Shown here: positions 8,093-50,785 of the stretch, piece after piece
How positions within the stretch are numbered: the stretch's first letter is position 1
Layout of the letters: each line of letters opens with the position of its first letter
Origin: Nanohaloarchaea archaeon SG9
Lineage (GTDB): Archaea; Nanohalarchaeota; Nanosalinia; Nanosalinales; Nanosalinaceae
Reading direction: 5' to 3'
DNA length: 64,000 bases
Assembly: GCA_001761425.1 (NCBI GenBank)
Contig: CP012986.1
Span: 575,980 to 639,979, forward strand
Translations under genes and position numbers: made by a program
The notes under the pieces: generated by a model
The model's input: only the letters and a program-made list of their open reading frames with translations
The model's database searches: none
Told to the model about the DNA's origin: nothing

Positions 8093-8234
8093 CGGACCTG
8101 AAGGGATTTGAACCCTTGACTTCGAGGTATTTCCATTCGAAGACCAAGATCTTCTCTAACCCCCCAACTTTTGCGGAAGCTCAAGCAGGAGGTATTAGGA
8201 ACCTCGCGCTCTGTCCATGCTGAGCTACAGGCCC
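8093..8234 (-). tRNA. tRNA-Arg (anticodon CCT) with a 67-nt intron at the canonical 37/38 position
   Basis: Reverse complement is GGGCCTGTAGCTCAGCATGGACAGAGCGCGAGGTTCCTA|intron|ACCTCGAAGTCAAGGGTTCAAATCCCTTCAGGTCCG. The acceptor GGGCCTG/CAGGTCC, D-arm, anticodon stem CGAGG/CCTCG and T-arm AAGGG-TTCAAAT-CCCTT only pair if about 67 nt (approx. 8129-8195) are removed. Exons are approx. 8196-8234 and 8093-8128. Confidence 0.8.
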
Positions 8235-11755: not shown

Positions 11756-12526
11756 ATGGAATCTGAACAGGTACAGAGAGAAACACAGAAATTTATTAGA
11801 GAGAAAGTAGATGAGGCAGATGCAGAAGGCCTTGTAGTAGGCCTCAGTGGAGGTATCGACTCAGCTACCTGTCTTAAACTGGCAGTAAGTGCTCTCGGCA
11901 GTGAAAAAGTCTTAGCATTGATAATGCCGGGAGAACCGAGCAGAAAGAAAAATATTGAAGATGCCAGAGGCCTGGCAGAAAGTTTATCTGTTAAAAGGAC
12001 TGAGATAGAGATAGATGAGACTGTGGAAAGTTTCCGGGAAAGTCTGTCCTTCGAACCAGGTAAAGAAGGCCTTGGAAACGTAAGAGCCAGGACAAGGATG
12101 GTATACACCTATGCACTTGCCAACAAAGAAAATCTTCTCGTCCTGGGGACAGGTAACAGGACAGAGTTCCTCCTCGGTTACTTCACCAAGTACGGCGACG
12201 CTGCAACAGATATTGCTCCGCTCCTAGACCTTTACAAGACAGAAGTTAGACAGTTAGCCAAACACATAGGCCTTGACAGGAAATTCATCGATAAAAAGCC
12301 TACAGCAGGCCTCTGGAAAGGCCAGACAGATGAAGACGAAATCGGCACAAGCTACGAAACCATGGACAGGATCCTGGAAGCCCTGGTGGACGAAGAAAAA
12401 TCCATGGAAAAGGCCTCTCAGTACTTGGAAGCGGAAAAAGATGTGATCAAGAGAATCGACGATATGTATAGAAATTCAGAGCATAAAAGGGAAGGTGTTC
12501 AAGGCCTGGAACTCGAGAAGGATTAA
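11756..12526 (+). CDS. nadE: NH3-dependent NAD+ synthetase
   Basis: 256 aa. LVVGLSGGIDSA is the PP-loop/SGGxDS motif. The overall NadE layout is present. Confidence 0.9.
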   Translation: MESEQVQRETQKFIREKVDEADAEGLVVGLSGGIDSATCLKLAVSALGSEKVLALIMPGEPSRKKNIEDARGLAESLSVKRTEIEIDETVESFRESLSFEPGKEGLGNVRARTRMVYTYALANKENLLVLGTGNRTEFLLGYFTKYGDAATDIAPLLDLYKTEVRQLAKHIGLDRKFIDKKPTAGLWKGQTDEDEIGTSYETMDRILEALVDEEKSMEKASQYLEAEKDVIKRIDDMYRNSEHKREGVQGLELEKD

Positions 12527-12540
12527 ACTCTTCAAGGCCC

Positions 12541-12553: not shown

Positions 12554-12563
12554 TTTTATTTTT
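12554..12563 (+). promoter_or_regulatory. TATA-like box (ttttattttt) about 28 nt upstream of the giant-gene ATG (12586), implying a leaderless or near-leaderless transcript
   Basis: Position and composition match an archaeal TATA box. There is no SD-like sequence before the ATG at 12586. Confidence 0.3.
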
Positions 12564-12585
12564 GGACGGCTCTCTTATTGTATAC

Positions 12586-15500
12586 ATGGATTCAGGTAAA
12601 ATCTCGAAGCTCCTCCTGATTTTCCTCATCTTAGGCCTCATCCCTCTCTCAGCTTCTATATCAGAGGTTGACGTTCTCGTAGTTAACGATGGACACACCC
12701 TGGATCCATCGGCATCGGTAGATTATAGCCAGGAGGTCGATGAGAATTTTGAGGATATCTACAACGAGTCTCTTAAATCTATACAAGGGGTGGATGTAGA
12801 TTATAGTAAGACTTCGGACGATGAAAAGGAATCCGGACCTTCTCTGGAGACTATGAACCAGTATGACATGGTTGTCTGGTACACTTTAGCAGATAGTGCT
12901 AGTTCTCCGGGCGGTTTCAAAACTCTAACCAGTACTGATGAAGAAAATGTTCGCGAGTATCTGGATCAGGGGGGGACTTTCTATCTGACGGGCCATACCC
13001 TAGATGATGAGGAATCTCTTTACGGTGAAGGAGATTTTTTCAGGGAGGTCATGAATGCCAGATACAAGGATAATGATGGAAGTCCAAATTACTGGAGGTT
13101 TACTGATAGAGGCTCAAATGATGGAGAGGATTGGGAGTATGTACAGGTAACTGACGGGGCACTTTCAGATACGGATAGAATGCTGTTCGATCAGGACGGG
13201 AAAATTGTCCTGACAGGAGAAGACTCTCATGCTATAACTGAGGATATGTCCTTTGAACTCAATACATCCACTAACCCCCCAAGCTCTCTGGGAGTCCTGA
13301 CCGATAACTGTTACCATGAACAAGACAATGAGACCGAACTCGATCAGTGTGATCCTAATCCTTGGCAAAACGCAGATGATGGTCTCAGACTAGTCAATAA
13401 CAAACCTGTAGCTGATAGTAAGGGTGATACTGTAGATAAGGAAAATGTCAACATAAACGGAGCGGGTGATTCCAGCAGGATCACAGTAGACTACAGCGAG
13501 AGCCCTGACATGAAAACCGTAGCTGGAGTTGCTGTAAAAGATTCTAAAGACGTTGAAATGGAGCATTTTGACATCAGTAACGATGAAGGAAGTATTAAGA
13601 AGCTGAAGTCTATAGAAACCGAAGCCTTTGACGTCTACACGTTTCTTATAGACGATCAGTCCGACGGAAATGCAGAGTTCCTATTTAACGATACTGCAAG
13701 GCTAGCAGCTATTACTGTAACTGTGAAAAACGCTGTAGGAGCCTATCCTGCGACTGATGTAACTACCAAAAGTGCTCCGGAGGATATCAGTACTTCCGTA
13801 GAAAGCCAGGATGGGGACAGGGTTATAGACTTCCTGGCAGCCTCGGATAGTCCTAGCACAACAAATGACGAAATGAACGATATGGCCACTACCAATCTAG
13901 GAGGTAGCTCTACTTTCTTAACCAAAAGATTGGAAGGTTCCGACCCAGAGAGAACTATGGGATACAGCGGGCCGGAAAACATGGCCCACATAGTAATCAA
14001 CCTCAGAAAGGATAGGGCTGACGCTGAATACTATGTAGAGACTGATGGCTATGAAGACAACGGAGAGCCGGCAAGCAATCCAGGAAACAGCAATAATCAG
14101 GCAGATTACCCTGATGAGTACGCTCACACACTTGTGAACTCTAGAGAAGATAAGTACAGGACTTTGGTCAGTTCTATTGGCTTCGAATCTATCAAGGGAG
14201 AACAAAGCAGGAAGCAACTAATGGATAACACTCTAAGATTTCTTACAGGTCCGGTCGCCAATAATACAAGAGTTTACTCAGGAGAAAATATACCGGATAG
14301 CGGTGCAGACGAGTCAAGATACACTAACAGCACGCTAAATATTGAAGCTGAGGGAGAAAACCTTCAGCAAAATCCTTCAGGCCTCAGACGTGCACGCTTC
14401 CTGCATGAAGGAACTCCTCAGGAATTTAAGCCTACCTTTGAATCAGGATTTGATAACTTCACGGAAGCTAATCAGACATGGGAAGGCGATTCTGAAGATG
14501 GAGGTTATGCAACTGTAACTAGATCATGCGGGGTAAAGAAAGGAGATCAGGTCTTAACACTCTATGCAAGAGACGACGAAACTTTGTTAGATTCTCGCGA
14601 TGATGTAGCTGCTGTGAGGATGTCAGAACCTGTGGACGTATCAAATCACCAGAATCTTGTGCTTGAATTTTATGTCTCGGACGATGGAGTTGATTGCGAT
14701 GAGCCTGAATACGATTATGGCGAGCATCTCGATGTTATGTACAAAAATAATAATGGCTCCTATAGTAGGGCCAGAACAATCTATGCTGAATCTGACAACG
14801 TTAACTGGAGGAAGGTTCAGGTAGAGATTCCCGTGGATCGCAATGATCAGTTCAAGGTAAAGTTTAAGACTAGGGAAATGGATGTTGGTGATGCCTGGCT
14901 TGTAGATGAGGTTGAGATCAATCAAGGCCTTAGTTTAACCGATGGAAGATGGGGAGACCAGAAAGAAAGTGTGGAAGGCTTTATCAACGCTACTAAAGCT
15001 GTTGATAACCTTGATTCCAATCCTCGAGGAGTGAATCTCACCTATGGCGTCCAGTTTAAGGATGATTCCAACCAGGGTTACTGGGGTGTTCCGGAGAAAA
15101 GATGGGTCAAAATTGATACGGTCCCTCCTAATTCTCTGACAGATGTGAGTTTCGAAGATGACTATACCTCAGATGAAACTGTTAATATTTCGGTTACAAA
15201 TGACTTCATACTTGAAAAAAGGGCGAACCTGACCAGGTTCAGCTGTGATCCTGAAAATGGAGAGTGGTCGGAGTGGAGAACGAGAGATAGTCAACAGGTG
15301 AGTCAGAAGTTTGAAATAGATATCACTGATCAGGCCTTGGGGTGCAGTGATTCTCAGGGTAACAGGACGATAAGTGTTCAGACAAGGGATTATGCAGGGA
15401 ACCGTGCTCCGGAGATCAAGAAGGACTGGATAATCTATGATGCTGAAAGACCTGATTTCCTGGGTGCAAGGCCTGGGAACAGGTCTGCCGTTCAGTCGGA

Positions 15501-18500
15501 TGTCACTGTGAATATCACAGCTTCCGATAACTTCGGGATTTCTGACAGGTTTACGGAGTATAATGCTGGACAGGAGGACAGTATCTCTTTCACTCCGAAC
15601 GAGACTGTAGGGCTTGATTTCACTGGTGAAGGCTGGAGGACCCTTGAGGCCTGGATCTATGACAGGGCGTCGAATCTCAGGGAGGTGAGCCTTGACTACG
15701 ATATCGATGATACTGCTCCCTGGGTCAACGTTACTCCTGAAAGTAATAACGAGCCTAAAAACGATACTGCTGTGAAGCCGGATGAAACGTTCAGGATTGA
15801 GGCCTTTGACAGGAATTTTGAGTCTCTGACCGTGAATTCTGTAGGTAACAGTACTTTTTCGAATAATGTCAGTGACTTTGATCCTGAGTGGTCTGGTGGA
15901 AAGGTCAGGGATCTTGAGGTCTGGTTGAATGATTCTGCCGGTAACCAGCGTTTCAGGAATTACAGCTATACTGTTGATGGTCAGGCTCCTGTCTCTGAAG
16001 CGGTTGATACGGCTAATGAGAGTTATGTGAAGAGTGATGATGTTTTGAAGTTCAACTTTTCGGACTCCACTTCCGGAGTTGAAGGTGTCTCCACTTCCAA
16101 GGACAGGGAGAGAGGGGTTGACTGGGATCTTGGTGTAGGCTTTGGCTCGGATGCCAGTGGGGAGACCGATCTATCTGTATCTGCGACTGACCGTGCTGGA
16201 AACACTTTGACGGAGAATTATACCTATACTCTGGACGATGAGCCTCCGGTCGCCGAAACCAATTACAGCCGGGAGGCAGATTCCACGGATGGATGGTTCA
16301 ACAGAGACGTGGAGGTCGAGGTAAACGCCACGGATAACCAGGAGCTAGATACGATTATCTACGGTTCCAGCAGGGATGGAAGTGTATCAGCACCTGAACT
16401 TACAAGTAACACGAACACCAGTATCAAGGTCACCTGTCCGAATTCAAACATCTGTGAAAAAGTTGTAACTTACAACGCCAATGATTCGGCGGGCAACTAC
16501 TTCCGGGATTCCTACAGAGAATCCGAGACAGTTTCAATCGATAAGAAAGCACCTCTGATCGAAATAGGATCTCTCACACAGTCAGGCCTCATCGAGATAG
16601 AATCAGAAATCAGAGATCCTGGTATCGGAGTCCAGGACGCAAGCTTCAGAGTCCTCAACAGGAGCGATACATCACAGGTTCTCGAGTCAGGAGACCTGAA
16701 CGAATCGAATAACTGGTCCTACATCTGGGACTCGGAACAGGATATAGACAGCACACAGGAAGTCACTCTCAAGATAGAGGCCGAGGACAGGTTCCAGCAA
16801 AACAGCACAGAACAGACCGAGTTCAAAGTTGAGAACGAGAAAACAACAGCAACCATAACAAATCCGGAAGACGAGATAGTATCCGACAACTTCGACCTCT
16901 CAATAGAGGCTAACAGGCCTGGAAACTCCGAAGGGCTTAAATGGCATAACTTCACGGTGGATAGGAACGGAGAAGAGGTCTACAGCGAATCAAAGAGCCT
17001 TGAAGGAGCCGATACCCATCTTTTCGACAGGCAGTTCGATACTACAGAGCTGGATGGCGACGGTAATTACAGTTTGAATACTACTGCACTGAGCAATGGG
17101 ACATCAGAGTACGCAACGGCTGAAAAATGGTTCTACCTTGATACCAGGCCTCCAGAGGCCTTGATCGAGACGGATATCAACGATTCATGGGTCACAGGAA
17201 GGATAGAGATAGATTTCGCCGCCTCGGACAGTGTGGGCAACGGAACCCTAGAATCTTACTACATGAATGACTCTGACTGGCAGAGAATGAACAAGAACCT
17301 GAACTACTCGGATAAGGCCTTCAACTTCAGTACCTCCGACAGATGTCAGGACTCTGCCTCGAATACCTGTGGAGTCAAGATCGTCGCTGAGGATAAGGCA
17401 GGTAACCTTAACAGCTCAATGGTGGAGTTCAAAGTCGATAACAGTCCTCCGGAAGTTGATCTGACCGCACCGGATGCTGAGTGGCAGAACTCGAACTTTA
17501 ACGTAGCCAGAAACATCAGTGACAATGTAGTTGACTCGAGAGATCTCTACTGTGAGGTGAAAGTTAACTCTACAGGATGGCGGGAGACACAGCTCTGTAA
17601 CACCAACTACACTGTAGATATCTCGGAAAGCTGCGACAGGGAAGGAGGAATATGTCAGGTCGAGATAAATGCCTCCCATCCAGAACTTCCGCTATACCAG
17701 ACAGATCAGAAGTTCTACTCCATAGACACAGAGCAACCAGAAATATACACAGGACCGGAGCCAGCACCAGAAACAGTAATCAACGGCAGCGAAGATATAA
17801 GCCTAGGATTCCAGGAACCGACCTCAGACATGAACTACTCGAAATGGGACGAAGGAAAAGGCCTGAAAGACCTGGAAACCGACCAACCTTTCAAGCCAGG
17901 ATGGACCGAAAACGGAAACCGGACTTTGGAAATACTGCTGAACGACACGGCAGGAAACCTCAGAACAGAGCAGTACATATACACCTTCGACAACAAAGCC
18001 CCAGAACTCCAGAACTCAGGCCTCTCCGTATCAGAAGACGGATTCTTCGACGAAACCAGGGTGTACAGGGGAGAAGAGATCAAGCTGGAGCTGAACGTAT
18101 CCGAGAACATAGAGATGGAAAAAGTTACTGCCGAGATAAGCAGCGATGGGGAAAACTGGAACAAATCACTTCAACTCGAGGAAGGAAACCTGACCGAAGG
18201 CCTCTGGACCAAAAACCTGGCCAATACGACAACAGGCCTCTACACCGTCCAGAAAGTGTACCTGGAAGATAGAGCAGGGAACAGAACCAGGGTCTCCTCA
18301 AGCCTTCCGGAGTTCAGGATCATGAACTACTCCGAAAACGTTGAGATAGGTGGAATGAAAGAAGTAGATGCAGGGAACAGCACGGATTTCAACTACACAG
18401 TAGATTTCAACAGGACTCAAGGAGAGAGGCAGCTCAAAGTCTACGTTCCGCCCTCCGGTCCGGGAGAAACCTTTGACCCATACTTCCAGCTGGAAAACGT

Positions 18501-21500
18501 ATCCTGTAAAACATCAGAATGTAACGTGACCCATCAGGAAAACTTCTTTAACCTATCATACACCGGAGGAAGCCCTGAGGTATCGGTGACAGCTCATTCA
18601 GAGGCCTTCACTCCTGAACAAGATACTGAAGGTAATTTCACATCTCAACTGCTTGATAACACGAGGAAGAGCGAGGTAAAGATCAGTGCTCCCGAACTGG
18701 AGATAAACAGCAGTTCCTGTAGTCCTGCATGTACGCTGGACCAGTTTGACAGCTTCAACCTGACCCTCGAGCCAGTGAACAATATGACATCTACCAGCAC
18801 CGGTACAGCCCTGAACACGAGTCTCTCTATCTCCTCTGGAGGCCTCGAGGATAGATCGAGAGAACTTGGAAACCTTGGAACTGGAGAAAATCTCAGTGAG
18901 AGGTTCGCGGATATCTCATCGGACGAGGCAGGAAACTTCACCTATGACGCTGTCCTCGAGGATGCTACAGGAGTTTACAGGGACTCAAAGGAGATCGAGG
19001 TAGAGTTCCTGGACGCAGAGGAACCCGATATTGTTGATGCAGGGCCTTCCTCCAGAAGAGTAAACGTCAACGACTCCATAGATCTTCTGGCAGAACTAAC
19101 CGACAACGTCGAAGTCGCCGATGCAAACCTGACCCTTGAATATCCGAACGGCACGGCACAGAACCTCTCCCTGGACAGAGACATAGAAAACGAATGGGCA
19201 AACTCTTTCAACAAAACATCTGAAAAAGGAATCTACCAGCTCAAAAAAGTCTATGCCTCAGACCGGAGAGAAAACACAAACCAGACCACGCTCAACTCAC
19301 AGTTCAAGGTGACAGAACTCAGACTCAACTCCTCTGTTTCAAAGACCAATATACAAAACCGGGAAGCTGTCAACTTCACAGTAAACATAACAGGAAACTC
19401 CACAGAAGTCCAGAGAGTCACGGTAAACGCGTCCACACCAGAAGGCCTCAACCGGTCCAGAGAATACACCGATGTAGGCCTCAACAACACTCTTAAATTC
19501 GACCGGTTCGATAACTCAGGAAACTACTCCTTCAACGTCACGGTAAACGCAGGCCTCAAAGTCACTAATCAGACCTCAGACGTCTTCGTCAGGTACGGGA
19601 ACAGCTCAGTAGAATCTCTGGACTCAGGAAACAACAGGACTCTGGAGATACCGGAGACCATAAGTTCAGCATCCCTTGAATGGAGACTCACACCGATCAA
19701 CGGGAGCCTGAAAAACCTCGCCTTCGAGCCCGGTTCAAATGACGAAACAGTTCTCAGCACAGGATCTGCCCAGAGTGTAGATGATCTCGTCTACACTGAA
19801 GGAGCAAGGACCGAACAGCTTACAGTAAACCCGGAAAACACAGGATCAGCAGATATAACAGCTATCCTCGAGGCAGAAAACGGAGGAAACACGAGTAAAC
19901 AAGTCTCCGTAGAAGTCACAGAACAGGACAATGAAAGGCCTCAGATCAACTCCTTCAACCTATCGGAAAAAGACTTGAACCTTAATGAAACACTCGATTT
20001 CTCTGCAAATATAACAGACAACTCGATAATCAAAAACTCAACGCTAGAGATCGGCTATCCTAACCCGTCAAACGCTACAGAGACCATAAACATGGAGAGA
20101 ATCGGAGAACAGACCTATCAAACGGAGTTCAACAACCTGAACCAGACAGGAAATTACACAGCAACTCTCAAGGCCTACGATATCTCCGGAAACAGCTACA
20201 TGGTCGCAGAGAATTTCACAGTCACCGATAGATACAGTATAGAGATCGATACCGACAAAAGCATATACATGAAGGAAGAAGATGCGGTCATAAGCTTCGA
20301 TGTCCTGGACGCAAGCGGAGATCAGGTCAAAAACTACAGCCTGAACTCCTCGATAGAATACAGCAACTCCAATCATTCACTGGTCGAAGGCCAGAACGTT
20401 TCAAGGACAGAGTTCACAGTTGAAAGAGATTATCCGCCAGATATAACCAATGAACTTGGCGGAGACCCTATCTACTACAGCATATACGCTGAGGCCTCAA
20501 GCAGAGGAAACAAAGGAAAGGCCTCGGCCAGCATGCCGGTTCACAGGGTATTCGACGTAAGTCTGAACAACGATCAGTACGTTGCTCCAGGTGAGAACTT
20601 CCTCGTGACCTCTGACTGGAGAAAGAAGAATGGAGAGCTTCTGCCTCAGACATGGCAGCCGTTTATACTCTGTGATGCCTGTCCAAGCAACTACAAACTC
20701 ATGTTGAGAGATCTGGAGACAGATAATTATGTCAAGAACTTGACAGCCCCGAACCAGACAGGCAGCTATTCCTTCACGCTCAGAGGTTCATACCAGGGTA
20801 ACTCGGAGAGCCAGGATCCTACAGGTGCGGAGGACGAACCTCCATTCGGCACATTCGAAGTCGTACCAGGCGGGAAACCGCCGAACAGTGGCGATGAGGA
20901 ACAGGCTCTGCCTTCAGGAGGCGGTGGAGGATTCTCTGGAGGAGGGCCTTCGATGGAGATTGTAAGACGGTCGCCTCCTCCAAGCATCCCTTCGGGAACC
21001 GAACAGGTGAACCTGTCTGTGAACACCAATATCGCGGCCGAATGCGTTTATTCAAGGAACAGGGTTCCAGAGGCCGTCCCATTCGATGAGGCCTCAGATT
21101 TCCAGGAAACCGGCGGAGTGAATCACAGCACGCCGTTAACTGCAGAAGAAGGTGTGACGTACAGCTACAACATTATGTGTGCCTCTGGCGAAGCCAACTC
21201 GACCCAGGAGATTATTTTCTCCACAGAAACTCTGGAAGGCTTCTCATACGCAGGCCCTACATCAGTCACGCCAAACAACGAGTCCGTATCACAGAAAGGA
21301 AACTACAGTGCAAGAGTAGCTGTCTACAACGAGAAAAGCGAGGCCTTGACCGTAGACCTGGACGTCGAGGGAACCTGCTGCAACCTGAGCTTTATGATCG
21401 GCTCAGAGAAGAAAGAATCGGTCACGATACCGGCTGAAGGAGAGAAAAACCTGGATCTGAACGTCTACTCCCCGCTTCATGTAAAACCAGGATCCTACAA

Positions 21501-40633: not shown

Positions 40634-42538
40634 ATGAAAAATTACTTCGCTATCTCAGCTTTTACAGCTTTGCTTGTCGCCACAGCTTTACTCGGTATCT
40701 CAAACCTTGTAACGTCGCCAGGCCCTGAGCCAGCTGGTGAAACCAGCGTTCAAAAATTCGAGTCAGAGCAGGCCTTCAGGCAGTTTGTCTCTGGATCTTC
40801 AGGTGTTAGAGAGTCTTTCCAGGGAAGGACCAGAGATTTCAGTACGAATTTTGAGAGTTCTCTTGACGGATCTTCAGGAAGCTCAGGTTCTGATGTAGAG
40901 AGAAGCTCGGATACCAACATACAGGTCTCAGGTGTTAATGAGCCGGATATACTGAAGAACGGCGGTGAAAAAATATTTTACTCCTCAGAACACACAGACT
41001 ACAGTTACTACCGGACAGGAAGCCAGAGAAATACATCGGTGTTCAATACTTTACCAGCCGAGAACTTTTCGGAAACCGATGAACTACCAGATAACGGAGA
41101 CATGTTCCTCACAGAGAACTCAGTCATCTTTATCGGAGACTCAATGGCCTCATACGACAGGGAGAACTACGATAAAAACTGGGATCTAGGCCTCAACGCC
41201 TCAGTCGAATCAGCGAGAAGGATAAACGACAGCATCTACCTCGTGACACGTGAAAGACCATCCGAGTCAGATCCGTGTCCTGTAAGGCCTCTTGACTCAG
41301 TAAGCATGCCATGTACAGATTTCTACAGGCCTACAGGAGCTGAGGGCGGTGATACTGCCTATACAGTTTCAAAGATAGACGTGGAAAGCGGGGACGTCGA
41401 GAAGACCACAGGTTTTGTCGGTTCAGGCGACAATACTGTTGTCTATGTTTCACATGATTCGATCTACCTGACATATCTTGAGAGAAAGTCGGAGATGGAG
41501 GTCTGGCTGAACTTCCTCGAACAGAGAGGAGACGAATTCTTCGACCAGGAAACTATGGAGAGAATAGAGGAGATCCAGAGCTATGATATAAGCGATAGAG
41601 CGCTCGAGACAGAGGTCCAAAAGGCAGTAAGAAACTATATGGAAGGCCTCTCCGGAGATGAGAGGACGGAGATGCGTGAAAACTTCCAATATGCCTGGGG
41701 CAACTACACGGATGAGAGAAAGCGGCAGCTCTCGACCACAGGCATAGCAGAGTTCAACACAGACCTTGAACTTGAAAATGAGGGACAGGTCCCCGGAGAG
41801 GTCAACGACCAGTTCTCCATCAGCGAGAAAGACGGCGACCTGAGGATTGCTACGACAGTCGGAAACTCATGGGAGTTTGAAGCGGAGTCAGCGAACGATC
41901 TCTACGTCCTCGACGGACAGCTGGATAGAAAGGGCGAGATCCAGGGATTGGGCCTTACAGAGGAGATCTACTCTGTCAGGTACGTCAATGACAAGGCCTA
42001 TGTCGTAACGTTCAGAAGGATCGATCCTTTCCACACAATCGATCTCTCAGATCCTTCGAATCCGGAGCTTGAGGGAGAGCTGAAGCTTCCAGGTTACTCG
42101 TCTTACCTACATCCGCTTTCAGATGAGAGAATCCTGGGCATCGGAGAGGAAGATGGAACTGTAAAGGCCGTGATCTTCGATGTCTCAACTGAGGAACCTG
42201 AGATAGAATCCTCAAAAGTTCTGGACGACTGGTACTCCGAAATCGCGGATTCACATCATGCGTTCACGATCGATAGGAAGCACGAAGTATTCTTCCTGCC
42301 TGGAAGCGAAGGAGGTCACGTCTTCGACTACAGTGAAGGCCTTGAACAGGTCAAAGAAGTCAACATGACTGACGTGAAACGTGCAGCCTATGTCAACGAT
42401 AACCTATACGTCTTCAGTGACACGAACGCAACAGTTATCGACCAGAACAGCTGGGAGACAGTCAAAGAGATCCGGTTCCACGAACCAAGCTACAGGCCTA
42501 TAGAACCGCCAGTGATAGACCCTCCGGTAGTCCGGTAA
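40634..42538 (+). CDS. secreted beta-propeller-domain protein (archaeal 'Beta_propel'-like family)
   Basis: 634 aa. An N-terminal signal/anchor (MKNYFAISAFTALLVATALLGI) is followed by FESEQAFRQFV, which resembles the F-x-S-x-EL..YL start of the secreted beta-propeller family. The rest is long and Asp/Gly/Tyr-rich with repeated blades (e.g. YVVTFRRIDPF, LYVFSDTN). Confidence 0.55.
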   Translation: MKNYFAISAFTALLVATALLGISNLVTSPGPEPAGETSVQKFESEQAFRQFVSGSSGVRESFQGRTRDFSTNFESSLDGSSGSSGSDVERSSDTNIQVSGVNEPDILKNGGEKIFYSSEHTDYSYYRTGSQRNTSVFNTLPAENFSETDELPDNGDMFLTENSVIFIGDSMASYDRENYDKNWDLGLNASVESARRINDSIYLVTRERPSESDPCPVRPLDSVSMPCTDFYRPTGAEGGDTAYTVSKIDVESGDVEKTTGFVGSGDNTVVYVSHDSIYLTYLERKSEMEVWLNFLEQRGDEFFDQETMERIEEIQSYDISDRALETEVQKAVRNYMEGLSGDERTEMRENFQYAWGNYTDERKRQLSTTGIAEFNTDLELENEGQVPGEVNDQFSISEKDGDLRIATTVGNSWEFEAESANDLYVLDGQLDRKGEIQGLGLTEEIYSVRYVNDKAYVVTFRRIDPFHTIDLSDPSNPELEGELKLPGYSSYLHPLSDERILGIGEEDGTVKAVIFDVSTEEPEIESSKVLDDWYSEIADSHHAFTIDRKHEVFFLPGSEGGHVFDYSEGLEQVKEVNMTDVKRAAYVNDNLYVFSDTNATVIDQNSWETVKEIRFHEPSYRPIEPPVIDPPVVR

Positions 42539-42601: not shown

Positions 42602-44068
42602 TTGTTACTTCTAAGTAATATTAGTATGTCTGCTGTGGAAGGTATCGGTACTGGCTGGCAGCTGGAGTTCGAGGATATCGATGGCTGGCAGAGCGAAAGT
42701 AAGGAACCGTACGCTAGTTTCCGGGATGAGCCGATGTCTTTCATGAGCTATGGTCAGCTATCCGATGAGAGAAAGCCTTTCTACCAGAGCAGAAGAAACG
42801 TTCTAGCAGGGACTTCAGGCCTTCAGGACCGTTTCTCTCATGAAGGCCCTCCAATGTCCAACTGGTCAAATCATTACCATACACCAGAGTCATGGCAGAA
42901 TGTCAGAAACCTTCACGGCCTTGAAGAAGGCGATAATTATGTTATCAACATGTCGAACAAGGCCCGGAAATGTGCGAAGCCAGAGTTCAAGGATTACCTG
43001 AAACAGAGCGACGACGATGTAGTCATCAATCCGATCGATATGATCAACCTGTTCAAGGACAAGTACCAGACATCAAAGCATTTCGAGGACAAAGGCCTTC
43101 CCGGGATACCAAGTATCAAAGGCGATGAGTTCCTGGAAGGAGGTAAAGAACACGTAGAAAAACAGATCGGTGACGGAGGAAAACACGGTTTTATCGCAAA
43201 GCCCTACAACGGCTCGTTCGGTGACGGAGTTCAACCTCTTGACAGCATGACCGAGGTCTACAACTTCCTGGACGGCGGTATCGAAAGAGAGGACGAAGAA
43301 GAGCTTATAGACCCTGATGAATACATTGTTCAGCCACGTATACCTCATGAAAGCGATCTAAGAGTCATAACAGTTGGAGAAGATGTCGTAAACGCGGAGA
43401 GAAGAAACAATACTGATGATGACATTAGAACCAACCTTTCACAGATGGACGGGATCATAAACGGAACAGATTACAGAGTCTACGGAAAAGCCCTGAAGGC
43501 CTTCAGAGGCCCTAATCCACGTGTGGAGCATATAGATGTTAACTACAAAGAAACACGGATGGAGATGGGAAGGTTCAACGATCTGGCGGATGAAAATTCC
43601 TCTCTCCTGGGTAGACAGGCCAGAAACCTGGCGAATGATATCATAGGTTCCTTCGGGCCTGAAGAGTTCAACTACAACCAGAATCTGGACAGGAAGCCGT
43701 TCAAGATCGGTATGGACTTCATAGAGACAAGTATTGAAGACATCCAGCACCTGCCGGACCGCTACGTTGAGAGGGCCAGTCAGTACGAGGAAGAGGATGG
43801 CACAGTATACCTTTCACCAGAGCTTAACGGCAGCCCCGGATCAATGGCAGATCTTGTCGCACGCTTCTCCAACCACCATGAACAGGTCTCGGCACTTCAC
43901 GTGAACAAACTGATGAGAGATCTAGCTGATCAAGAAACAAAACCGATCAGCCACCACGTTCAGAACCCCAGAAGCGATGTATGGAAAAACATCAAGGACT
44001 GGTACCCAGACCTCGGAGACGACTACCTCCAGAGAGGTTACTACAACCTCAAACCTAAGAACAAGTAA
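42602..44068 (+). CDS. ATP-grasp domain protein (RimK/glutamate-ligase-like) with a long N-terminal extension
   Basis: 488 aa. GFIAKPYNGSFGDGV and YIVQPRIPHESDLRVITVGEDVV resemble the ATP-grasp B- and C-domain motifs. The start may be the Met at 42626. Confidence 0.5.
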   Translation: MLLLSNISMSAVEGIGTGWQLEFEDIDGWQSESKEPYASFRDEPMSFMSYGQLSDERKPFYQSRRNVLAGTSGLQDRFSHEGPPMSNWSNHYHTPESWQNVRNLHGLEEGDNYVINMSNKARKCAKPEFKDYLKQSDDDVVINPIDMINLFKDKYQTSKHFEDKGLPGIPSIKGDEFLEGGKEHVEKQIGDGGKHGFIAKPYNGSFGDGVQPLDSMTEVYNFLDGGIEREDEEELIDPDEYIVQPRIPHESDLRVITVGEDVVNAERRNNTDDDIRTNLSQMDGIINGTDYRVYGKALKAFRGPNPRVEHIDVNYKETRMEMGRFNDLADENSSLLGRQARNLANDIIGSFGPEEFNYNQNLDRKPFKIGMDFIETSIEDIQHLPDRYVERASQYEEEDGTVYLSPELNGSPGSMADLVARFSNHHEQVSALHVNKLMRDLADQETKPISHHVQNPRSDVWKNIKDWYPDLGDDYLQRGYYNLKPKNK

Positions 44069-45476: not shown

Positions 45477-48047
45477 GTGAAGACTCAAAAAGCAAAGAAT
45501 CTTGACCAGGTCTACGAAGAAGTCAGAGAATATGACCTGGTTATCACCGCAGAGGCCTCGACAGCTGACTCACTGAAGCGGAGACTTGAAGAAACCAAAC
45601 TCGGCAGATTCGCAGTCACACCTCAGAGACTGGCATACGGCGACGAACTCGCAGAAGAAGATTTCAAGCGAGACATATTTCTCAAACTCGTCAAAGAAGA
45701 AGGCCTTCGCTGGAAACAGGCATCTTACCTTCTCAGGAACGCTATAAGCTGCTGGAAAGAATGCGGAGACCTAGAAAAAGTGAAAGAACACGGCTTCACA
45801 GGCGAGGCAATGGAGAAAGTCATAAAGATCCTGCAAAATACTGACAACCCGCTCAAAGCCCTGGAAAATTACAGAGTCCCGGAGGATAAAAATGTGGCGG
45901 TCCTGGCACCTTACCAGTTAAACGAACTGGATAAAAAAATCCTGCCGGACGATTACGAGGAGATAGGCCTCTTCCTTGACGATGAACAGGATTTACCGGA
46001 GTTCAAGGTCTTTAATTCATCGAACGAGCTGATACAGGCCCTGAAAGAAAGTATAGAAAAAGTGGGGCCTCAGAACGCCGGTGTCGTCGTCGATCCTTCT
46101 TCCGGTTACCAGGCCTTGCTTGAGTCTGCTCTGGAGTCCTCTGATATTCCCTATCTGAAGCAGCAGGATCTTTCTGAGGACGAGGATCTGAGGACTTTTC
46201 TCTCCCTGATGCGTACAGGCCTCTCTTCGAAGCGTGTGCGTGTGAAAGATATAAGACCTGTTTTACAGGAGTTGAACGTGCCTGTCTCCTCCGTTGAGAG
46301 CGAGAAGTTTATCGAGGATCTTGAGGAGGGAAGGCTTCAGGAGTTCAGAGATGTTTTCTCAATGATGCAGCATCTGCCGTTCGAAGAAGTGGTGAGAAAG
46401 TACGAAGAGTTCACAGGGAGACATCTCGGACCGGTGAAATCTATACTGAGTGAGCTTGACGTCGAAGATGAAATGGTCTCAGAGGCACGTATAAACCAAA
46501 TAGAGTATTACCTAGACAGTTTCGCACCAAGCGAAGACATAGAGGAGGACGGGGTTCTGTTCGCCGATCCGAAAAAGGTCTCACGTGTTGACAGACCGGC
46601 AGTCTTTTTCGTTGGCATGGATACAGAATGGAGACAGGAGCCTGAGAACCTGGCATGGATAGATCAGGAGAAAAGGGAAAAAGAGAATTTGAAAGACTTC
46701 AGATCGCTGCTTCAGAGCGGGAAACCGGTTTTCATGGTCCAGGACAGGGAGATGAACGAGGACATCAAGCCCTGCTTCTATCTCAACGAGCTGATCGATG
46801 AAGATTTCCAGAACTTCCGCCAGCTACCGCACAGACGTGTAAGGCCTGAAGAGACAGAGACAGAGACAGGCTTCGAACGCCAAGGCCTGGAAATCGAACA
46901 GGAAGAAGTGGAGGTCCTGAGCCAGTCCTCTCTCAATGATTTTGCGATGTCCCCACGCTACTACTACATCTCCAAACTTGTCTCCGACGTCGATGAAGAA
47001 GCCCTGGAAAAAGGAAACCTGTTCCATGACTACGCAGAGTTCTACGTCAACTATCCAGGCTTTATGGACGATAAAGGAGATGAAGAAGTCATCAGTTTCA
47101 TGATGAACAGGATAAGGCCTTTTGCCGATGACCTGGATCTTGAGAAGCTGGAGACAGAGTTCAAGGTAGGCCTGAAAAATATCAGAGAGTTCATCAAGAA
47201 CAGAGATATCTCGAGAGAGGAGATAGACGGCTACGAGAAAAAAGACAGGGATGAAAACGTGTTCTCAGAGGAGTACGGAAAACCGGTCCGGTCAAAGATA
47301 ACAGAACTCTGGTTCAAGGACAAGGATCTGGGAGGTAAGGGAAAAATCGATTTCCTCCAGGACCAGCAGAACCTTATCGATTACAAGTCAGGGAGAAGAA
47401 AATCTGAGAAAAAAGTCGTCAAGAAATCAAAAGTCGCTTTACACGGCGACGAGCAGTATCCTAACTTCCAGGCACCGATGTACCTAGCCTACCACCGCAA
47501 AAAGAACCCCGGAGAAAAAATTAACTTCACATTCTTCCATTTCCTCGACAACCTCGGCGATGAGGTAACAGGTAAGGCCTCAAACGGCGATAACGTTGTA
47601 ACAGTTACATACTACCCGGAAAAATTCAGCAAAGCGGTCGCATCCAACCAGGCCTTCGAACTACTGATAAAAGACGTTGCGAAGAGCAACGACCGGAGGA
47701 AAACCCTGGAAAAACTTGGCTGTCACCAGTTCAAAAAGTTCATGGAGGAAAACGAGTTCCCGAAGACGCATGACAAGAAAGAGGTTCTGGCCTCCAAGTT
47801 CGCCGAGGATTTCAAGGCCTATGCGAAGAAAGAGGTAGGAGACTACAAATACGTGAAAAACGGGGTTAAATCCGCGTTAAAAAAACTCGTTGAGTTCCAC
47901 ACCGAGAACTATTTCAGGGATGATATTGATCTCTTCGAGGAGTTTCTTGAGGAGAAGCTGGAGGAGTTGAACGATTACAGAGGAACCAGGTTCCCACTGG
48001 ATGCAAAAGCAGATAACATACCTGAAAGAGACCTGATAGTCAAATGA
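45477..48047 (+). CDS. AddB-like subunit: inactivated helicase-like N-terminus with a C-terminal RecB-family PD-(D/E)xK nuclease
   Basis: 856 aa with no Walker A. The C-terminus has SLNDFAMSPRYYY (Cas4/AddB-type nuclease N-motif), LFHDYAEFY and GKIDFLQDQQNLIDYKSG (RecB nuclease motif III). The ATGA stop/start overlaps the next gene. Confidence 0.6.
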   Translation: MKTQKAKNLDQVYEEVREYDLVITAEASTADSLKRRLEETKLGRFAVTPQRLAYGDELAEEDFKRDIFLKLVKEEGLRWKQASYLLRNAISCWKECGDLEKVKEHGFTGEAMEKVIKILQNTDNPLKALENYRVPEDKNVAVLAPYQLNELDKKILPDDYEEIGLFLDDEQDLPEFKVFNSSNELIQALKESIEKVGPQNAGVVVDPSSGYQALLESALESSDIPYLKQQDLSEDEDLRTFLSLMRTGLSSKRVRVKDIRPVLQELNVPVSSVESEKFIEDLEEGRLQEFRDVFSMMQHLPFEEVVRKYEEFTGRHLGPVKSILSELDVEDEMVSEARINQIEYYLDSFAPSEDIEEDGVLFADPKKVSRVDRPAVFFVGMDTEWRQEPENLAWIDQEKREKENLKDFRSLLQSGKPVFMVQDREMNEDIKPCFYLNELIDEDFQNFRQLPHRRVRPEETETETGFERQGLEIEQEEVEVLSQSSLNDFAMSPRYYYISKLVSDVDEEALEKGNLFHDYAEFYVNYPGFMDDKGDEEVISFMMNRIRPFADDLDLEKLETEFKVGLKNIREFIKNRDISREEIDGYEKKDRDENVFSEEYGKPVRSKITELWFKDKDLGGKGKIDFLQDQQNLIDYKSGRRKSEKKVVKKSKVALHGDEQYPNFQAPMYLAYHRKKNPGEKINFTFFHFLDNLGDEVTGKASNGDNVVTVTYYPEKFSKAVASNQAFELLIKDVAKSNDRRKTLEKLGCHQFKKFMEENEFPKTHDKKEVLASKFAEDFKAYAKKEVGDYKYVKNGVKSALKKLVEFHTENYFRDDIDLFEEFLEEKLEELNDYRGTRFPLDAKADNIPERDLIVK

Positions 48048-50785
48048 CAGAAGAATCACGTGAGGTCAGTCCTAACAGGCAACAGCAGAAACTTATAGAT
48101 AACATTGAAGGCCTTTACCTGGTAAACGCCGGTGCAGGGACTGGAAAAACTTTTACTATAACTCATCGCTACATCGAGATACTGGATGAGGTGGAGCCGG
48201 AGGATATCTTCCTTGCTACCTTTACAAGGAACGCTGCGGACGAGATGGCAGAGAGGATTGTATCAGAATCTGATTACCAGGCCTCGGATATCTGGGATGC
48301 TCCGATCTCGACTTTTCACAGTCACTGCCAGAAGATACTGGAGAGAAACGGCTTTTCAGTGCCGGAGGAACTGGGAATCCAGGACAGCATAGAGAACATC
48401 GATGTCCTGGAAAGCCAGATACGTGAACGCCAGGAATTCCACCGGTTCATGGACCGATTTATAGAAAACAACCCTGAGTACTCAAATTTCTACAGGATCT
48501 CACGTAACTACGATAATTTCCTGCACCTGATCAAATCCCTGGCCTCCAAAGGCATTATACCGGAGAAAGAAGGATGGTACCGCGACACAGAGGCCTTCCT
48601 CAACGGAGATAAAAAAGAGTTCATGGAGCTGTTCGAGGAAGCAAACAGGCCAAGACACAGCAGTAACGGCAAGAGACAGAGCGATCTTCGAAACAGGCTC
48701 TACAGCTACAGGTACAAGAACTTTCCCGAAGACGCGCCGGAGGGAGAGGAAGTCCGCGGAGGATACGGTACAAAAACTGTGAGAAAGGATTTTGGGGAAA
48801 AGGCCTTTGAAGAGGATAGAGAAGAACTCAAGGCCTTTGTACATGATCTTTACTTCGAGTACGTCCGTTACTGTCTTTCAAGAAACTATCTTAATTTCTC
48901 GTTCCTGATGATGTTCGCCTACGTCCTTCTGAGAGAAAATGAGTACGTCAGGAGGCAGGAGAGCTTCGAGTATATGATGATTGACGAGTTTCAGGATACT
49001 AACCCCCTCCAGTTCAAGCTTGCGTTGCTTCTGGCGGAGAGGCCTAATATAGCGGTTGTAGGTGACTGGAAGCAGAGTATTTACAGTTTCCAGTATGCTT
49101 CTGTAGAAAATATTCAGGAGTTCCGTCAGCGCCTGAAAGATTTCAGGGATGAGCTGAATCAGGAGAGGGAGAGAGTGAGTTTTTCCGTCGAAGGCGTCGA
49201 GGAGATCGAGCTGAGGAAAAACTACCGCTCCACCCAGGACATACTGGACTATGCGGAGCAGAGTCTCCAGTTATCTGCGAATAAGTACGAGGAGGTCGAT
49301 GAAAAAGATGTTACAGGCCTTGAATCTGAGATAGAGAATCAGGAGTCAAGTATTGAGAAATACATTGCTGAGGAAGAGGTAGAGGCCGTGCTGACAGAGA
49401 TCCTTGAGATAGTTGACAACGAGGATTACAGGTATGGAGACGAGAACAAAAAGCTGGATTTCAGGGATATAGCAGTTCTGACCCGTACCCGTGGTTTCGG
49501 CCTTCAGCTCCAGGAGGAGGCCCGTGAACACGGTATCCCCGTCGCCTATGAGGGAGGTGTAGAACTTTTCAAGACGAATCCTGCGATCCTTCTCCTCGCG
49601 TGGCTCCGCGTACTTAACAACGAGGATTCCAGGAAGGGCTGGGCTGTGATCCTTGAAGAAGCCGGTTACAGGCTTGAAGAAGCAAAGAAAATTCTCGATC
49701 CCGAGGAAGAAGAATACAAGTATCCCGAGGATATGGAAGAGTTCCGGGAGCGTCTGGAAGGCCTTGAATCGATAAGTTCTGTAGCGAGAACGGTCTTCCA
49801 CAGGTATGGATATTCGAACGCATTCACTGACAAAATAATAGAAGTTCTAAGCAATGTTTTCACGTCAAGCTACATGAATCTAGGTGAACTGATCCAGTTC
49901 ATACAGGAGAATATCGAGGAAAACGAGATATACGAGGTCGATTCATCGCGTAACAGGAATACCGTCAAAATACAGACGATACACGCAGCGAAAGGCCTTG
50001 AGTACCCTGCTGTCTTTATCTCGGACGTGAACCAGGGAAAGTTCCCGTCGAAGAACTCTGATTCCAAGGCTATCACCTATGCGGATCCTGTAGGCCTCAG
50101 GCAGAGAAAAATCTACAGGAACGGAGGCCTTGCATTTGAGTATGATAACTGGAGGACTGAGATCCTCATGAAATGTCTTTCCGGGAACTACGATGAAGAG
50201 AGAAGGCTGATGTACGTCGCCATGACCAGGGCACAGCAGCATCTCTTTATCACAGCGGAGAAGGATCGGGGATCAACGTTCTTTGAAGGCCTCAGTGGAG
50301 AACCGGAGCTGCTGGAAGCTGATGTCGAGGATGTAAAAGTCGATAAAGAGGACCTGGAAGTATTCGAAGTGGAGAGTGTAAACTCAGAAAGAAATGAGCT
50401 GAGATCCGTCCATTCAGAACTTGATGTGGTTGAAGGAGATAAGGAAAAAGGCAACGGTCTACATGAGTTCGCTGAGGCCTATGCTAACGGAGAGGATGTA
50501 GAGGCCTCGAACAGCAGGGAAAAAGAGGTCAAGGAATTTATAGATTCCCTGGAAGGTGAGTTAGAGGCTGAAAAGCATGTCAGCATACCGGTTGACGGAA
50601 AAGTCTATGAAAGCGTGATAGACCTGGTACACGTGACTGAGGAGAAAGTTGAGGTCATAGATTACAAGACGGACTCAAATCCTGATAACATGAAGGAGTA
50701 CCAGAAACAGGTCGAATGCTACAGGAAAGGCCTTGAACAAATATTTGACAGGCCTGTGGAGAAAAGGATAGTGACTCTGGAATGA
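48044..50785 (+). CDS. AddA/UvrD-like SF1 helicase with a C-terminal RecB-family nuclease domain
   Basis: 913 aa. It carries Walker A NAGAGTGKT and motifs Ia TFTRNAADEM, II MIDEFQDTNP, III VGDWKQSIYSFQ, IV YRSTQ, V TIHAAKGLEYPAVF and VI YVAMTRAQQHLFI. The C-terminal nuclease motif is VIDLVHVTEEKVEVIDYKTD. Confidence 0.8.
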   Translation: MTEESREVSPNRQQQKLIDNIEGLYLVNAGAGTGKTFTITHRYIEILDEVEPEDIFLATFTRNAADEMAERIVSESDYQASDIWDAPISTFHSHCQKILERNGFSVPEELGIQDSIENIDVLESQIRERQEFHRFMDRFIENNPEYSNFYRISRNYDNFLHLIKSLASKGIIPEKEGWYRDTEAFLNGDKKEFMELFEEANRPRHSSNGKRQSDLRNRLYSYRYKNFPEDAPEGEEVRGGYGTKTVRKDFGEKAFEEDREELKAFVHDLYFEYVRYCLSRNYLNFSFLMMFAYVLLRENEYVRRQESFEYMMIDEFQDTNPLQFKLALLLAERPNIAVVGDWKQSIYSFQYASVENIQEFRQRLKDFRDELNQERERVSFSVEGVEEIELRKNYRSTQDILDYAEQSLQLSANKYEEVDEKDVTGLESEIENQESSIEKYIAEEEVEAVLTEILEIVDNEDYRYGDENKKLDFRDIAVLTRTRGFGLQLQEEAREHGIPVAYEGGVELFKTNPAILLLAWLRVLNNEDSRKGWAVILEEAGYRLEEAKKILDPEEEEYKYPEDMEEFRERLEGLESISSVARTVFHRYGYSNAFTDKIIEVLSNVFTSSYMNLGELIQFIQENIEENEIYEVDSSRNRNTVKIQTIHAAKGLEYPAVFISDVNQGKFPSKNSDSKAITYADPVGLRQRKIYRNGGLAFEYDNWRTEILMKCLSGNYDEERRLMYVAMTRAQQHLFITAEKDRGSTFFEGLSGEPELLEADVEDVKVDKEDLEVFEVESVNSERNELRSVHSELDVVEGDKEKGNGLHEFAEAYANGEDVEASNSREKEVKEFIDSLEGELEAEKHVSIPVDGKVYESVIDLVHVTEEKVEVIDYKTDSNPDNMKEYQKQVECYRKGLEQIFDRPVEKRIVTLE

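Follow-up and report, generated by a model that had tools for sequence, protein, structure and literature searches.

A stretch of 64,000 nucleotides (nt) from Nanohaloarchaea archaeon SG9 (the window; its positions are used throughout) was analysed with respect to a giant gene and the two KaiC-family ATPase genes that lie beside it. The giant gene occupies positions 12586-22236 of the plus strand as one intact open reading frame (ORF) and codes for a protein of 3,216 amino acids (aa), which consists of a signal peptide, a head, a long stalk of repeated modules, a linker, and a C-terminal anchor module with a single transmembrane (TM) helix and a cytoplasmic tail. It is followed on the same strand by the gene of KaiC1 (22272..23807), a 511-aa protein in which a ~100-aa N-terminal domain is joined by a K/E-rich linker of ~170 aa to a single KaiC/RecA-type ATPase domain at the C-terminus, and then by the convergent gene of KaiC2, a single-domain KaiC-family ATPase of 228 aa (23864..24550, minus strand). 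Homologous proteins are denoted P0001-P0004 and related loci or contigs L001-L025, L004 being the nearest strain. We lean, by a rather narrow preference, towards seeing in the giant protein an adhesion fibre that is shielded by glycans and has a KaiC-type ATPase docked on its tail.

The giant gene and the topology of its product

An earlier note on this DNA, made from the sequence alone, had described the gene as a single giant ORF, and the intact frame confirmed this. Counted from the first TTG, the frame is open over 12562..22236 (+); the ATG at 12586 is the start which the close homologues P0001 and P0003 also use. A T-rich TATA-like box can be read in the sequence at 12554..12563 (+), ~28 nt 5' of this ATG, and judged by what is known of the position of archaeal promoters, it would provide the gene with a promoter of its own and with a leaderless or near-leaderless mRNA.

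In a Kyte-Doolittle scan (19-residue window, threshold >1.6) only two hydrophobic segments were found, aa 1-33 and aa 3086-3112, in agreement with the signal peptide and the one C-terminal TM helix that had been proposed. The N-terminal segment has an n-region with K, an L/I h-region and a cleavage-like site between SAS and I. The signal peptide predicted from the hydrophobicity scan, aa 1-24 (12586..12657, +), reads MDSGKISKLLLIFLILGLIPLSAS and is followed by I; it is kept in P0001 and P0003, and no Cys lipobox, twin-Arg or class III pilin motif could be read in it. The net charge of the protein is about -306, which, together with the conserved Cys pairs, supports its extracellular character.

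The protein contains 118 N-x-S/T sequons, where composition-preserving shuffles gave an expectation of 45.9-46.7 +/- 5.7 (z ~12, a 2.6-fold enrichment); for the other 27 ORFs of the window, taken together, the ratio of observed to expected sequons was 1.14. All 118 lie within aa 25-3084 and not a single one in the TM helix and the tail, and the homologues carry 93-154 of them. The distribution along the chain is uneven, with 9 sequons in the first 800 aa and 7-15 per 200 aa over aa 800-2600. Thus, of the earlier claim that sequons are scattered along the entire ectodomain, the enrichment and the confinement to the ectodomain held, but the distal part of the head is sparse in them.

Four independent assemblies (JGI, ENA, Logan) contain collinear full-length homologues, with identities of 91, 54, 44 and 30%. 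The relatives met in the genome scan were metagenome-assembled genomes (MAGs) named Ca. Nanohalobium, Ca. Asbonarchaeum, Ca. Nanoanaerosalina and Nanohaloarchaeota, and one Aenigmatarchaeota MAG. The nucleotide identity to L004 is 96-100% over the gene ends and the flanks, with the exception of one internal variable stretch, and the ratio of non-synonymous to synonymous divergence (dN/dS) against the same strain was 0.05-0.46 in each region where it was computable. The window itself has an acidic proteome and housekeeping genes, and the loci carrying the giant gene are embedded among housekeeping genes and do not form an island. The whole protein matched no Pfam or NCBIfam model above cut-off, and its whole-length profile found no match in the PDB. 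The word-indexed homologue searches were insensitive here (4, 3 and 1 matches were returned, and the tail query missed P0001-P0004), and it is possible that the word index covers the C-termini of giant proteins poorly. The general description in the earlier note is supported by these data: the giant surface protein is secreted, has a type-I anchor and is rich in sequons, and it belongs to a halophilic DPANN archaeon with a small genome.

The anchor module, the tail and the KaiC-family genes

The membrane-proximal part of the protein begins with two FN3-like sandwiches, aa 2789-2879 and 2900-2993 (20950..21570, +), the second of which opens the conserved anchor module. It is followed by an extracellular antiparallel three-helix stalk, aa 2996-3084 (21571..21837, +), whose third helix runs on into the single TM helix, aa 3085-3112 (21838..21921, +). 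The TM helix ends in a conserved P-Y-Y-R, and the cytoplasmic tail, aa 3113-3216 (21922..22236 with the stop codon, +), is helical and carries the motif ARKK(A/G)EKQYFxRxIDxxTFxxxMTERQxE(V/I)LxLRG. The AlphaFold2 (AF2) model of aa 2786-3216, with a mean predicted local distance difference test score (pLDDT) of 68, contains the two beta-sandwiches, the three-helix bundle (pLDDT 85-94), a long helix that crosses the membrane and two further helices. The tail had been described before as a K/E/Q-rich coiled coil of ~110 aa. It is in fact 104 aa long; 41% of its residues are charged, K, E and Q make up 36%, and the occupancy of the heptad a/d positions reaches 6/8, a pattern compatible with a coiled coil, so that the composition and the helical character were recovered but the length was not.

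The TM helix and the tail are the best-conserved part of the protein and are under strong purifying selection. The tail is 100% identical to that of P0001 and 88-90% identical to those of P0002 and P0003. Over the TM helix and the tail together, the identity to P0002 and P0003 is 86-90%, compared with ~40-54% for the stalk, and that to P0004 is 39-44%, compared with ~30% for the stalk. In the comparison with L004 the dN of this region was 0 at a dS of 0.135-0.25 (0.135 for the tail), and the invariant columns of the alignment are densest at aa 3085-3216. The tails of 11 loci have in common a P-Y-Y-R where the chain leaves the membrane, together with the motif ARKK(A/G)EKQYFxRxIDxxTF...ERQxE(V/I)LxLRG.

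The distribution of the anchor module was obtained by an exhaustive HMMER run in which a profile of aa 2786-3216 was compared with 1.84 billion cluster representatives; it gave 1,299 matches at E <= 1e-3, 397 at E <= 1e-10 and 70 at E <= 1e-30. The TM helix and the tail motif were covered in 99 of 155 profile-matched proteins (mainly among the 150 matches listed); in these 99 the module has a C-terminal position in proteins of 244-3,715 aa, the shortest of which are probably fragments. In P0089 (6,221 aa) the module is present without the full span of the tail, and the remaining profile matches cover the first sandwich only, which is a common repeat. The members that bear an organism name are Aenigmarchaeota. 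Eight members which were scanned had almost no Pfam content, and the tail itself matched no Pfam family. A SHOCT-like motif was considered for the tail and rejected, having no match at E <= 10 in nine diverse tails and no place among the best 25 of the 56 families listed for the tail alignment.

The module can be described by an FN3-like sandwich, an extracellular three-helix bundle, a TM helix ending in P-Y-x-R and the motif EKQYFxRxIDxxTF at the C-terminus of a secreted protein, all of which are found in the window protein. It matches neither Pfam nor NCBIfam, is defined here and is possibly new; the surface proteins that carry it range from ~600 to >6,000 aa. An 859-aa ORF of L023 (1573-4152) has the same anchor module, as has the 6,221-aa P0089. 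Since the module stands on ectodomains of very different size, it is the module and not the giant size that represents the conserved unit. An extra C-terminal extension beyond the conserved tail was noticed in L002 (P0004 aa 3368-3450) and in L007; that of P0004 has a sub-threshold match to a CdvA-like coiled coil (PF18822, 20.0-25.6 bits, cut-off 30).

The two genes downstream code for proteins of the KaiC family (PF06745), with 197 bits for KaiC1 and 205 bits for KaiC2 at a cut-off of 26.6. Walker A (GKTGTGKT in KaiC1, GGTGTGKT in KaiC2), Walker B and the catalytic Glu are intact in both, as seen from TEE and from VVIDSVS and VILDSMS, respectively. In the PDB the ATPase domain of KaiC1 matched KaiC with an E value of 1e-58 and also the single-domain archaeal proteins PH0186, PH0284 and SSO2452. 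KaiC1 is not an ArlH, its score with the NCBIfam ArlH model being 56.4 bits against a cut-off of 215. The pair does not correspond to the cyanobacterial KaiABC system either: KaiC1 and KaiC2 each have a single KaiC domain, and no KaiB- or KaiA-like gene was present among the window ORFs scanned. The N-terminal extension of KaiC1 (22272-23063), with its beta-looking domain and K/E-rich linker, had no PDB match; among the loci its length varies from 0 to perhaps ~500 aa, and it is missing in L002, L013 and L019-L025.

A KaiC1-type gene lies directly downstream of the giant or related gene, on the same strand, in 23 of the 25 tail-bearing loci (the window and 24 others), namely in the window, L001-L006, L008-L013, L015-L020 and L022-L025. 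The spacer between the tail gene and KaiC1 was 9-41 nt in 13 of the 14 loci measured, and in L018 it was 381 nt to the first in-frame ATG. The adjacency persists where the identity of the tail has fallen to ~30% and the GC content is 31-38%; in one such low-GC locus the neighbours are archaeal housekeeping genes (ABCE1, NusA-KH, Obg-like GTPase). The ATPase domain of KaiC1 is 50-83% identical across the loci, far above the conservation of the ectodomain. A convergent KaiC2 gene accompanies KaiC1 in the loci of Nanohaloarchaeota, in L002 and in L013, which is from Aenigmatarchaeota; none was seen beside KaiC1 in L019-L025. No type IV pilus or archaellum genes occur near the locus within the window.

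Between the giant gene and KaiC1 there is a conserved 21-nt element, AACTCTTTTTCAAGGGGCGGA (22237..22257, +), which stands directly after the stop codon and ~28 nt before the ATG of KaiC1. It contains an oligo-T run; five loci have the identical element and two others a recognisable version of it, in spite of divergent coding flanks. The motif AACTCTT(N0-4)CAAGG occurs exactly twice in the window, at an expectation of 0.13: at 12526-12537, after the stop codon of nadE, and at 22237-22257, after that of the giant gene. Copies in the same position were located in L001 (19805-19819), L003 (9851-9865), L004 (10912-10926), L005 (8339-8353) and L016 (6493-6507). From its sequence and position, AACTCTTTTTCAAGGGGCGGA is a candidate oligo-T terminator and/or a TATA-like promoter for KaiC1. 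The linkage of the giant gene to KaiC1 is tight, and the two may be co-transcribed.

The stalk and the head

The stalk, aa 846-2760 (15121..20865, +), is built of tandem Ig-like beta-sandwich modules of ~100 aa, about 19 by their periodicity; it is dense in sequons and has invariant Cys pairs. Repeats were detected with hhalign in two module families: one with starts at aa 955, 1043, 1133, 1521 and 1716, for most pairs of which the probability was 84-99, and another with starts at aa 1804, 2146 and 2450 (probability 98 for 1804/2146 and for 2146/2450, 65 for 1804/2450). Ten D-x-x-(A/P/Q)-P boundary motifs lie within aa 844-1802, two of them overlapping (1618 and 1625), and looser ones were recognised at aa 952, 2143 and 2448. 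The window protein itself stays below every Pfam Ig cut-off, with Big_3_3 as the only match (10.5 bits, cut-off 27). Its orthologues exceed the Pfam cut-offs, for Big_13 with 40.3 (L009), 38.0 (L011) and 27.4 bits (P0003) and for Big_3_3 with 35.6 bits (P0004). In the AF2 model aa 846-1135 are all-beta (pLDDT 50-77), which is consistent with the beta-sandwich fold of the repeat modules, and SiiE, csg, GhpA and FN3 were among the Foldseek matches of the N-terminal model. The tandem Ig-like modules with boundary motifs, which the earlier note had proposed, are therefore supported by the motifs, the repeats, the orthologues and the model alike. As a rough estimate from the ~19 modules, the stalk would measure ~80-90 nm if it were fully extended. 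A Gly/Pro-rich flexible linker, PGGKPPNSGDEEQALPSGGGGGFSGGGPS, follows at ~aa 2761-2788 (20866..20949, +), where it had been expected; G2778-2782 are invariant in it.

The head begins with a domain that is split in two in the window protein. The first part, aa 25-252 (12658..13341, +), has alternating beta/alpha elements and the invariant residues D-x-L-x-V-x-D-x-H, W98 and LTG134-136; the second, aa 468-600 (13987..14385, +), includes the invariant GFE...R...M helix region. They are separated by a clade-specific insertion, aa 253-467 (13342..13986, +), which is missing from the homologues of L002, L009 and L011, has 2% identity to P0004 and no Pfam match; in L002, L009 and L011 the halves 9-245 and 510-645 were found contiguous by blastp. 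A ThuA/GATase1-like fold had been suggested for this domain on the basis of three strings, and these are present as quoted (DVLVVNDGH at aa 29-37, YDMVVWYT at aa 93-100 and GGTFYLTGH at aa 129-137). The fold itself found no sequence support: four orthologous N-domains gave no ThuA, DUF4350 or other GATase1-like match in Pfam at E <= 10, and the profile from which the insertion had been removed found no relevant match in the PDB. The AF2 model of aa 25-1135 was computed from a 5-sequence alignment and, with a mean pLDDT of 40, was too poor for a fold search with the head; its first 135 residues form an alternating beta-alpha-beta arrangement, but at a pLDDT of 30-57.

A beta-rich, Cys-containing region, aa 601-845 (14386..15120, +), leads from the head domain to the stalk. 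The jelly-roll-like character attributed to it before received weak backing, namely a sub-threshold match to Reelin_subrepeat-B (PF21471, 16-20 bits, cut-off 27, E 6e-4 to 1e-2) in three of four orthologues, the window protein included; no match above cut-off was obtained. In the AF2 model the region forms strands of pLDDT 50-67, and reelin structures were among the Foldseek matches of the low-confidence model.

The head is hypervariable, or mosaic, at the strain level. Over ~aa 180-775 (13120..14900, +) the nucleotide identity to L004 falls to 59-86%, compared with 96-100% elsewhere. The dS against L004 was 1.9 in the insertion, 0.58 in the jelly-roll-like region and ~0.06 elsewhere, and the dN/dS of the variable regions was 0.18-0.27. 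It looks as if the membrane-distal head had been swapped for a diverged allele with its function maintained. A hypervariable head under purifying selection fits a ligand-recognition surface. A mechanism of the diversity-generating retroelement type is probably not at work in the head, since a divergence of 14-41% over 1.8 kb together with a high dS suggests that alleles were replaced or recombined, and does not resemble a short variable region targeted at A.

Some other features of the window were also recorded. A 142-nt Rfam tRNA match at 8093-8234 (-), missed by ARAGORN, would fit an archaeal tRNA with an intron. At 40634-42538 (+) lies the gene of a 634-aa Beta_propel (PF09826) protein. The 488-aa ORF which comes next, at 42602-44068 (+), has only a weak ATP-grasp match (PF08443, 22.7 bits) and 9 sequons where 3.3 are expected (z = 3.6); it may represent another glycosylated envelope protein. 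Two overlapping genes at 45477-50785 (+) resemble an AddAB-like pair, their products being an 856-aa protein with a PD-(D/E)XK nuclease domain and a 913-aa helicase of the UvrD type, and a protein with FIST N and C domains, a putative sensory domain, is encoded amid metabolic genes at 58521-59735 (+).

The proposed mechanism and its alternatives

In the mechanism that we propose, the head would bind a ligand on a host cell or on a surface, and the tail, as the cytoplasmic prolongation of the TM helix, would dock the KaiC1 ATPase, expected to be hexameric and probably working with KaiC2. Engagement or clustering of the fibres could then be coupled, from the outside in, to the ATPase or autophosphorylation state; alternatively, from the inside out, the ATPase might set the state of the fibre. 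The Gly/Pro linker would serve as a hinge between the stalk and the anchor module. The earlier suggestion that the tail transmits information across the membrane is strengthened by the tail being the best-conserved part of the protein and by its genetic coupling to KaiC-family ATPases. A precedent for coupling to an ATPase exists in other nanohaloarchaeal giant Ig-repeat proteins, in which a cytoplasmic P-loop ATPase follows the TM helix (PMC10266531). More tentatively, and with clearly less confidence than we have in the fibre itself, we suggest that the anchor module and the adjacent KaiC ATPase form an undescribed transmembrane coupling device of Nanohaloarchaeota, Aenigmarchaeota and related low-GC archaea, where a KaiC-type ring on the tails of fibres of different length would report contact or control clustering and adhesion.

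Several points weigh against the model of an adhesion fibre with a docked ATPase. The binding of the tail to KaiC and the direction of the signalling are what we infer, adhesion and the ligand are deduced purely from the architecture, and N-glycosylation is predicted from the sequons only. The head is without a sequence match in Pfam or the PDB, and its AF2 model has the low mean pLDDT of 40 given above. L007 has the convergent KaiC2 type only, and L021 has no KaiC within 2.4 kb. Because there are near-duplicates among the 25 loci, the independent lineages are fewer than the loci. The T-rich intergenic element stands at the position of an archaeal TATA box or terminator, and KaiC1 may for this reason be transcribed separately. 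Finally, no more than two KaiC-type ATPases are listed in the transcriptome table of Ca. Nanohalococcus occultus, and no giant gene lies beside either, so that some members of the phylum may lack the module.

The most serious competitor, which we regard as unlikely but by no means negligible, is a structural surface-layer (S-layer) protein or S-layer-anchoring stalk, whose tail would be held by an abundant KaiC-type scaffold. The S-layer protein csg of haloarchaea has ~800 aa, forms a lattice and is lipid-anchored via PGF-CTERM/ArtA. Like the window protein, for which N-glycosylation is predicted, csg (PDB 7ptp, an in-situ structure which is among the Foldseek matches) is an acidic, N-glycosylated array of Ig domains with a C-terminal membrane anchor, and the type-I anchored, sequon-rich array described here is similar to it. 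The conserved housekeeping context over many lineages and the purifying selection over the whole length would likewise suit a structural protein, and a regular S-layer-like surface has been reported for cultivated nanohaloarchaea (PMC7443923). By abundance, the single-domain KaiC NEQ174 ranks third among the proteins of Nanoarchaeum equitans, one place behind the S-layer protein NEQ300 (PMC3149612); this gives a hint that the KaiC ATPases of DPANN archaea may be envelope-associated and near-structural. However, with 3,216 aa and ~21 modules the window protein is several times longer than the 941-aa NEQ300 or the 725-residue csg chain; compared with the full csg, it is four times as long, and it has a TM helix with a conserved tail, a head that varies and a KaiC gene beside it. 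Neither PGF-CTERM nor any other known family of S-layer proteins was matched in Pfam or NCBIfam, ectodomains of ~600 to >6,000 aa on the same anchor module do not suit one lattice unit, and a head that is hypervariable between near-identical strains is not expected of such a protein.

It is somewhat less likely still that the protein is a passive adhesin, the tail of which would serve only for retention or oligomerisation and the adjacency of which to KaiC would be regulatory or historical, for instance through general KaiC-type regulators of surface structures of the kind proposed for type IV pili. Tandem ~100-aa Ig-like modules with D-x-x-x-P boundaries are also found in the bacterial BIg-repeat adhesins (SiiE, extenders of the LapA/MpIBP type and GhpA, with Big_13 and Big_3_3), and these matched the model of the window protein in Foldseek at a probability of 1.0. 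The bacterial examples use other export routes, such as type I secretion, are retained in the outer membrane and are not known to have a TM helix, a cytoplasmic tail or a partner ATPase. A passive role of the window protein would agree with a possible promoter or terminator between the genes and with the two differently arranged loci (L007 and L021), and so would the observation that single-domain KaiC-family ATPases are encoded beside many archaeal surface-structure loci, where they are thought to be regulators (PMC4858521, PMC9563170). On the other hand, a tail used only for retention would not need a cross-phylum motif with a dN of 0; the 9-41-nt adjacency is kept from Nanohaloarchaeota to low-GC lineages while the remaining neighbourhood changes; and type IV pilus genes are missing near the locus in the window.

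The archaellum offers a working analogy for the docking of a tail by KaiC1. ArlX (FlaX) is a single-pass membrane protein with a cytoplasmic coiled coil and acts with the single-domain KaiC-like ATPase ArlH (FlaH). The analogy goes no further than this arrangement: KaiC1 is below the ArlH cut-off, and no archaellum genes are nearby. The earlier descriptions of archaeal KaiC-like ATPases, which Makarova and co-workers view as hubs of signal transduction and regulators of surface structures, concern type IV pilus or archaellum loci, and here the proposed partner is the tail of a giant Ig-repeat protein. Some Nanohaloarchaeota MAGs are reported to have kaiC in paired copies (PMC9563170). In the literature searched, which did not cover the 2017 KaiC survey, no pairing of a giant-protein tail with KaiC was described, and an earlier mention is possible.

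The closest known counterparts within the phylum are SPEARE and the related giant membrane-anchored surface proteins of Nanohaloarchaeota (Ca. Nanohaloarchaeum antarcticus; SVXNc_0300, BNXNv_0298; PMC6642349, PMC10266531), from which the window protein is set apart here by the published architecture. Both have a Sec signal peptide, an Ig-like array, a single TM helix and a cytoplasmic part, both are linked to P-loop ATPases, and a role in host contact is presumed for both. The SPEARE-type proteins have 5,000-9,400 aa and a VirB4/TraG-like ATPase fused after the TM helix, and a further VirB4-like ATPase gene follows (PMC10266531). In contrast, the window protein has a 104-aa helical tail without an ATPase domain (no P-loop, and no ATPase family in Pfam at E <= 1), and the ATPases encoded next to it are KaiC/RecA-type proteins of PF06745, not VirB4/TraG. 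The serine protease of the original SPEARE definition has no match in Pfam or NCBIfam either, and none of the homologues found carries the SPEARE name. Thus, of the SPEARE-like architecture for which the earlier note had proposed to look, only the signal peptide, the Ig array and the TM helix are shared, and no relative of halomucin, which it had also named, turned up. The giant-protein family is also present in a Nanohalobium MAG; the cultivated Ca. Nanohalobium constans was reported to be without SPEARE (PMC7443923).

The resemblance to the SPEARE-type proteins bears on a further explanation, according to which the locus would code for an export or injection device, with the KaiC/RecA-type ATPases energising the secretion or assembly of the fibre or of a cargo. 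The giants with a VirB4/TraG-like ATPase and a second such ATPase, which have been read as secretion 'straws' (PMC10266531), are a parallel to it. Two ATPase genes are likewise found beside the fibre gene. Nevertheless, each chain has one TM helix, there is no polytopic channel component in the conserved core, and the fibre has an ordinary Sec signal peptide. To our knowledge, no protein of the KaiC family is reported to act as a motor of translocation, and on balance we consider such a device improbable. An assembly chimera or a decaying pseudogene, for which only the unusual length and the missing Pfam match above cut-off could be adduced, is effectively excluded by the collinear full-length homologues in at least four independent assemblies, by a dN/dS of 0.05-0.46 in all computable regions with a dN of 0 for the TM helix and the tail, and by the 96-100% nucleotide identity to L004 over both gene ends and the flanks.

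Giant surface proteins of DPANN archaea with a coupled cytoplasmic ATPase are a known kind, of which the window protein would be a new form; the module of anchor and KaiC is possibly new and widely distributed. The DPANN archaea live attached to host cells, which they have to recognise, hold and sense. In the literature searched the SPEARE-type proteins are the only nanohaloarchaeal giants discussed, and the present locus would add a second and more widespread class of fibres. For contact sensing or the control of adhesion the locus provides a concrete candidate, in the form of a tail peptide with its defined motif and of a soluble ATPase, and the single-domain KaiC proteins that abound in DPANN cells may find a function here. 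The anchor module, definable by a hidden Markov model, may serve as a marker for such fibres in metagenomes. If the proposed coupling device is real, it would be a functional counterpart of integrin-type outside-in and inside-out signalling in archaea which are mostly without two-component systems.

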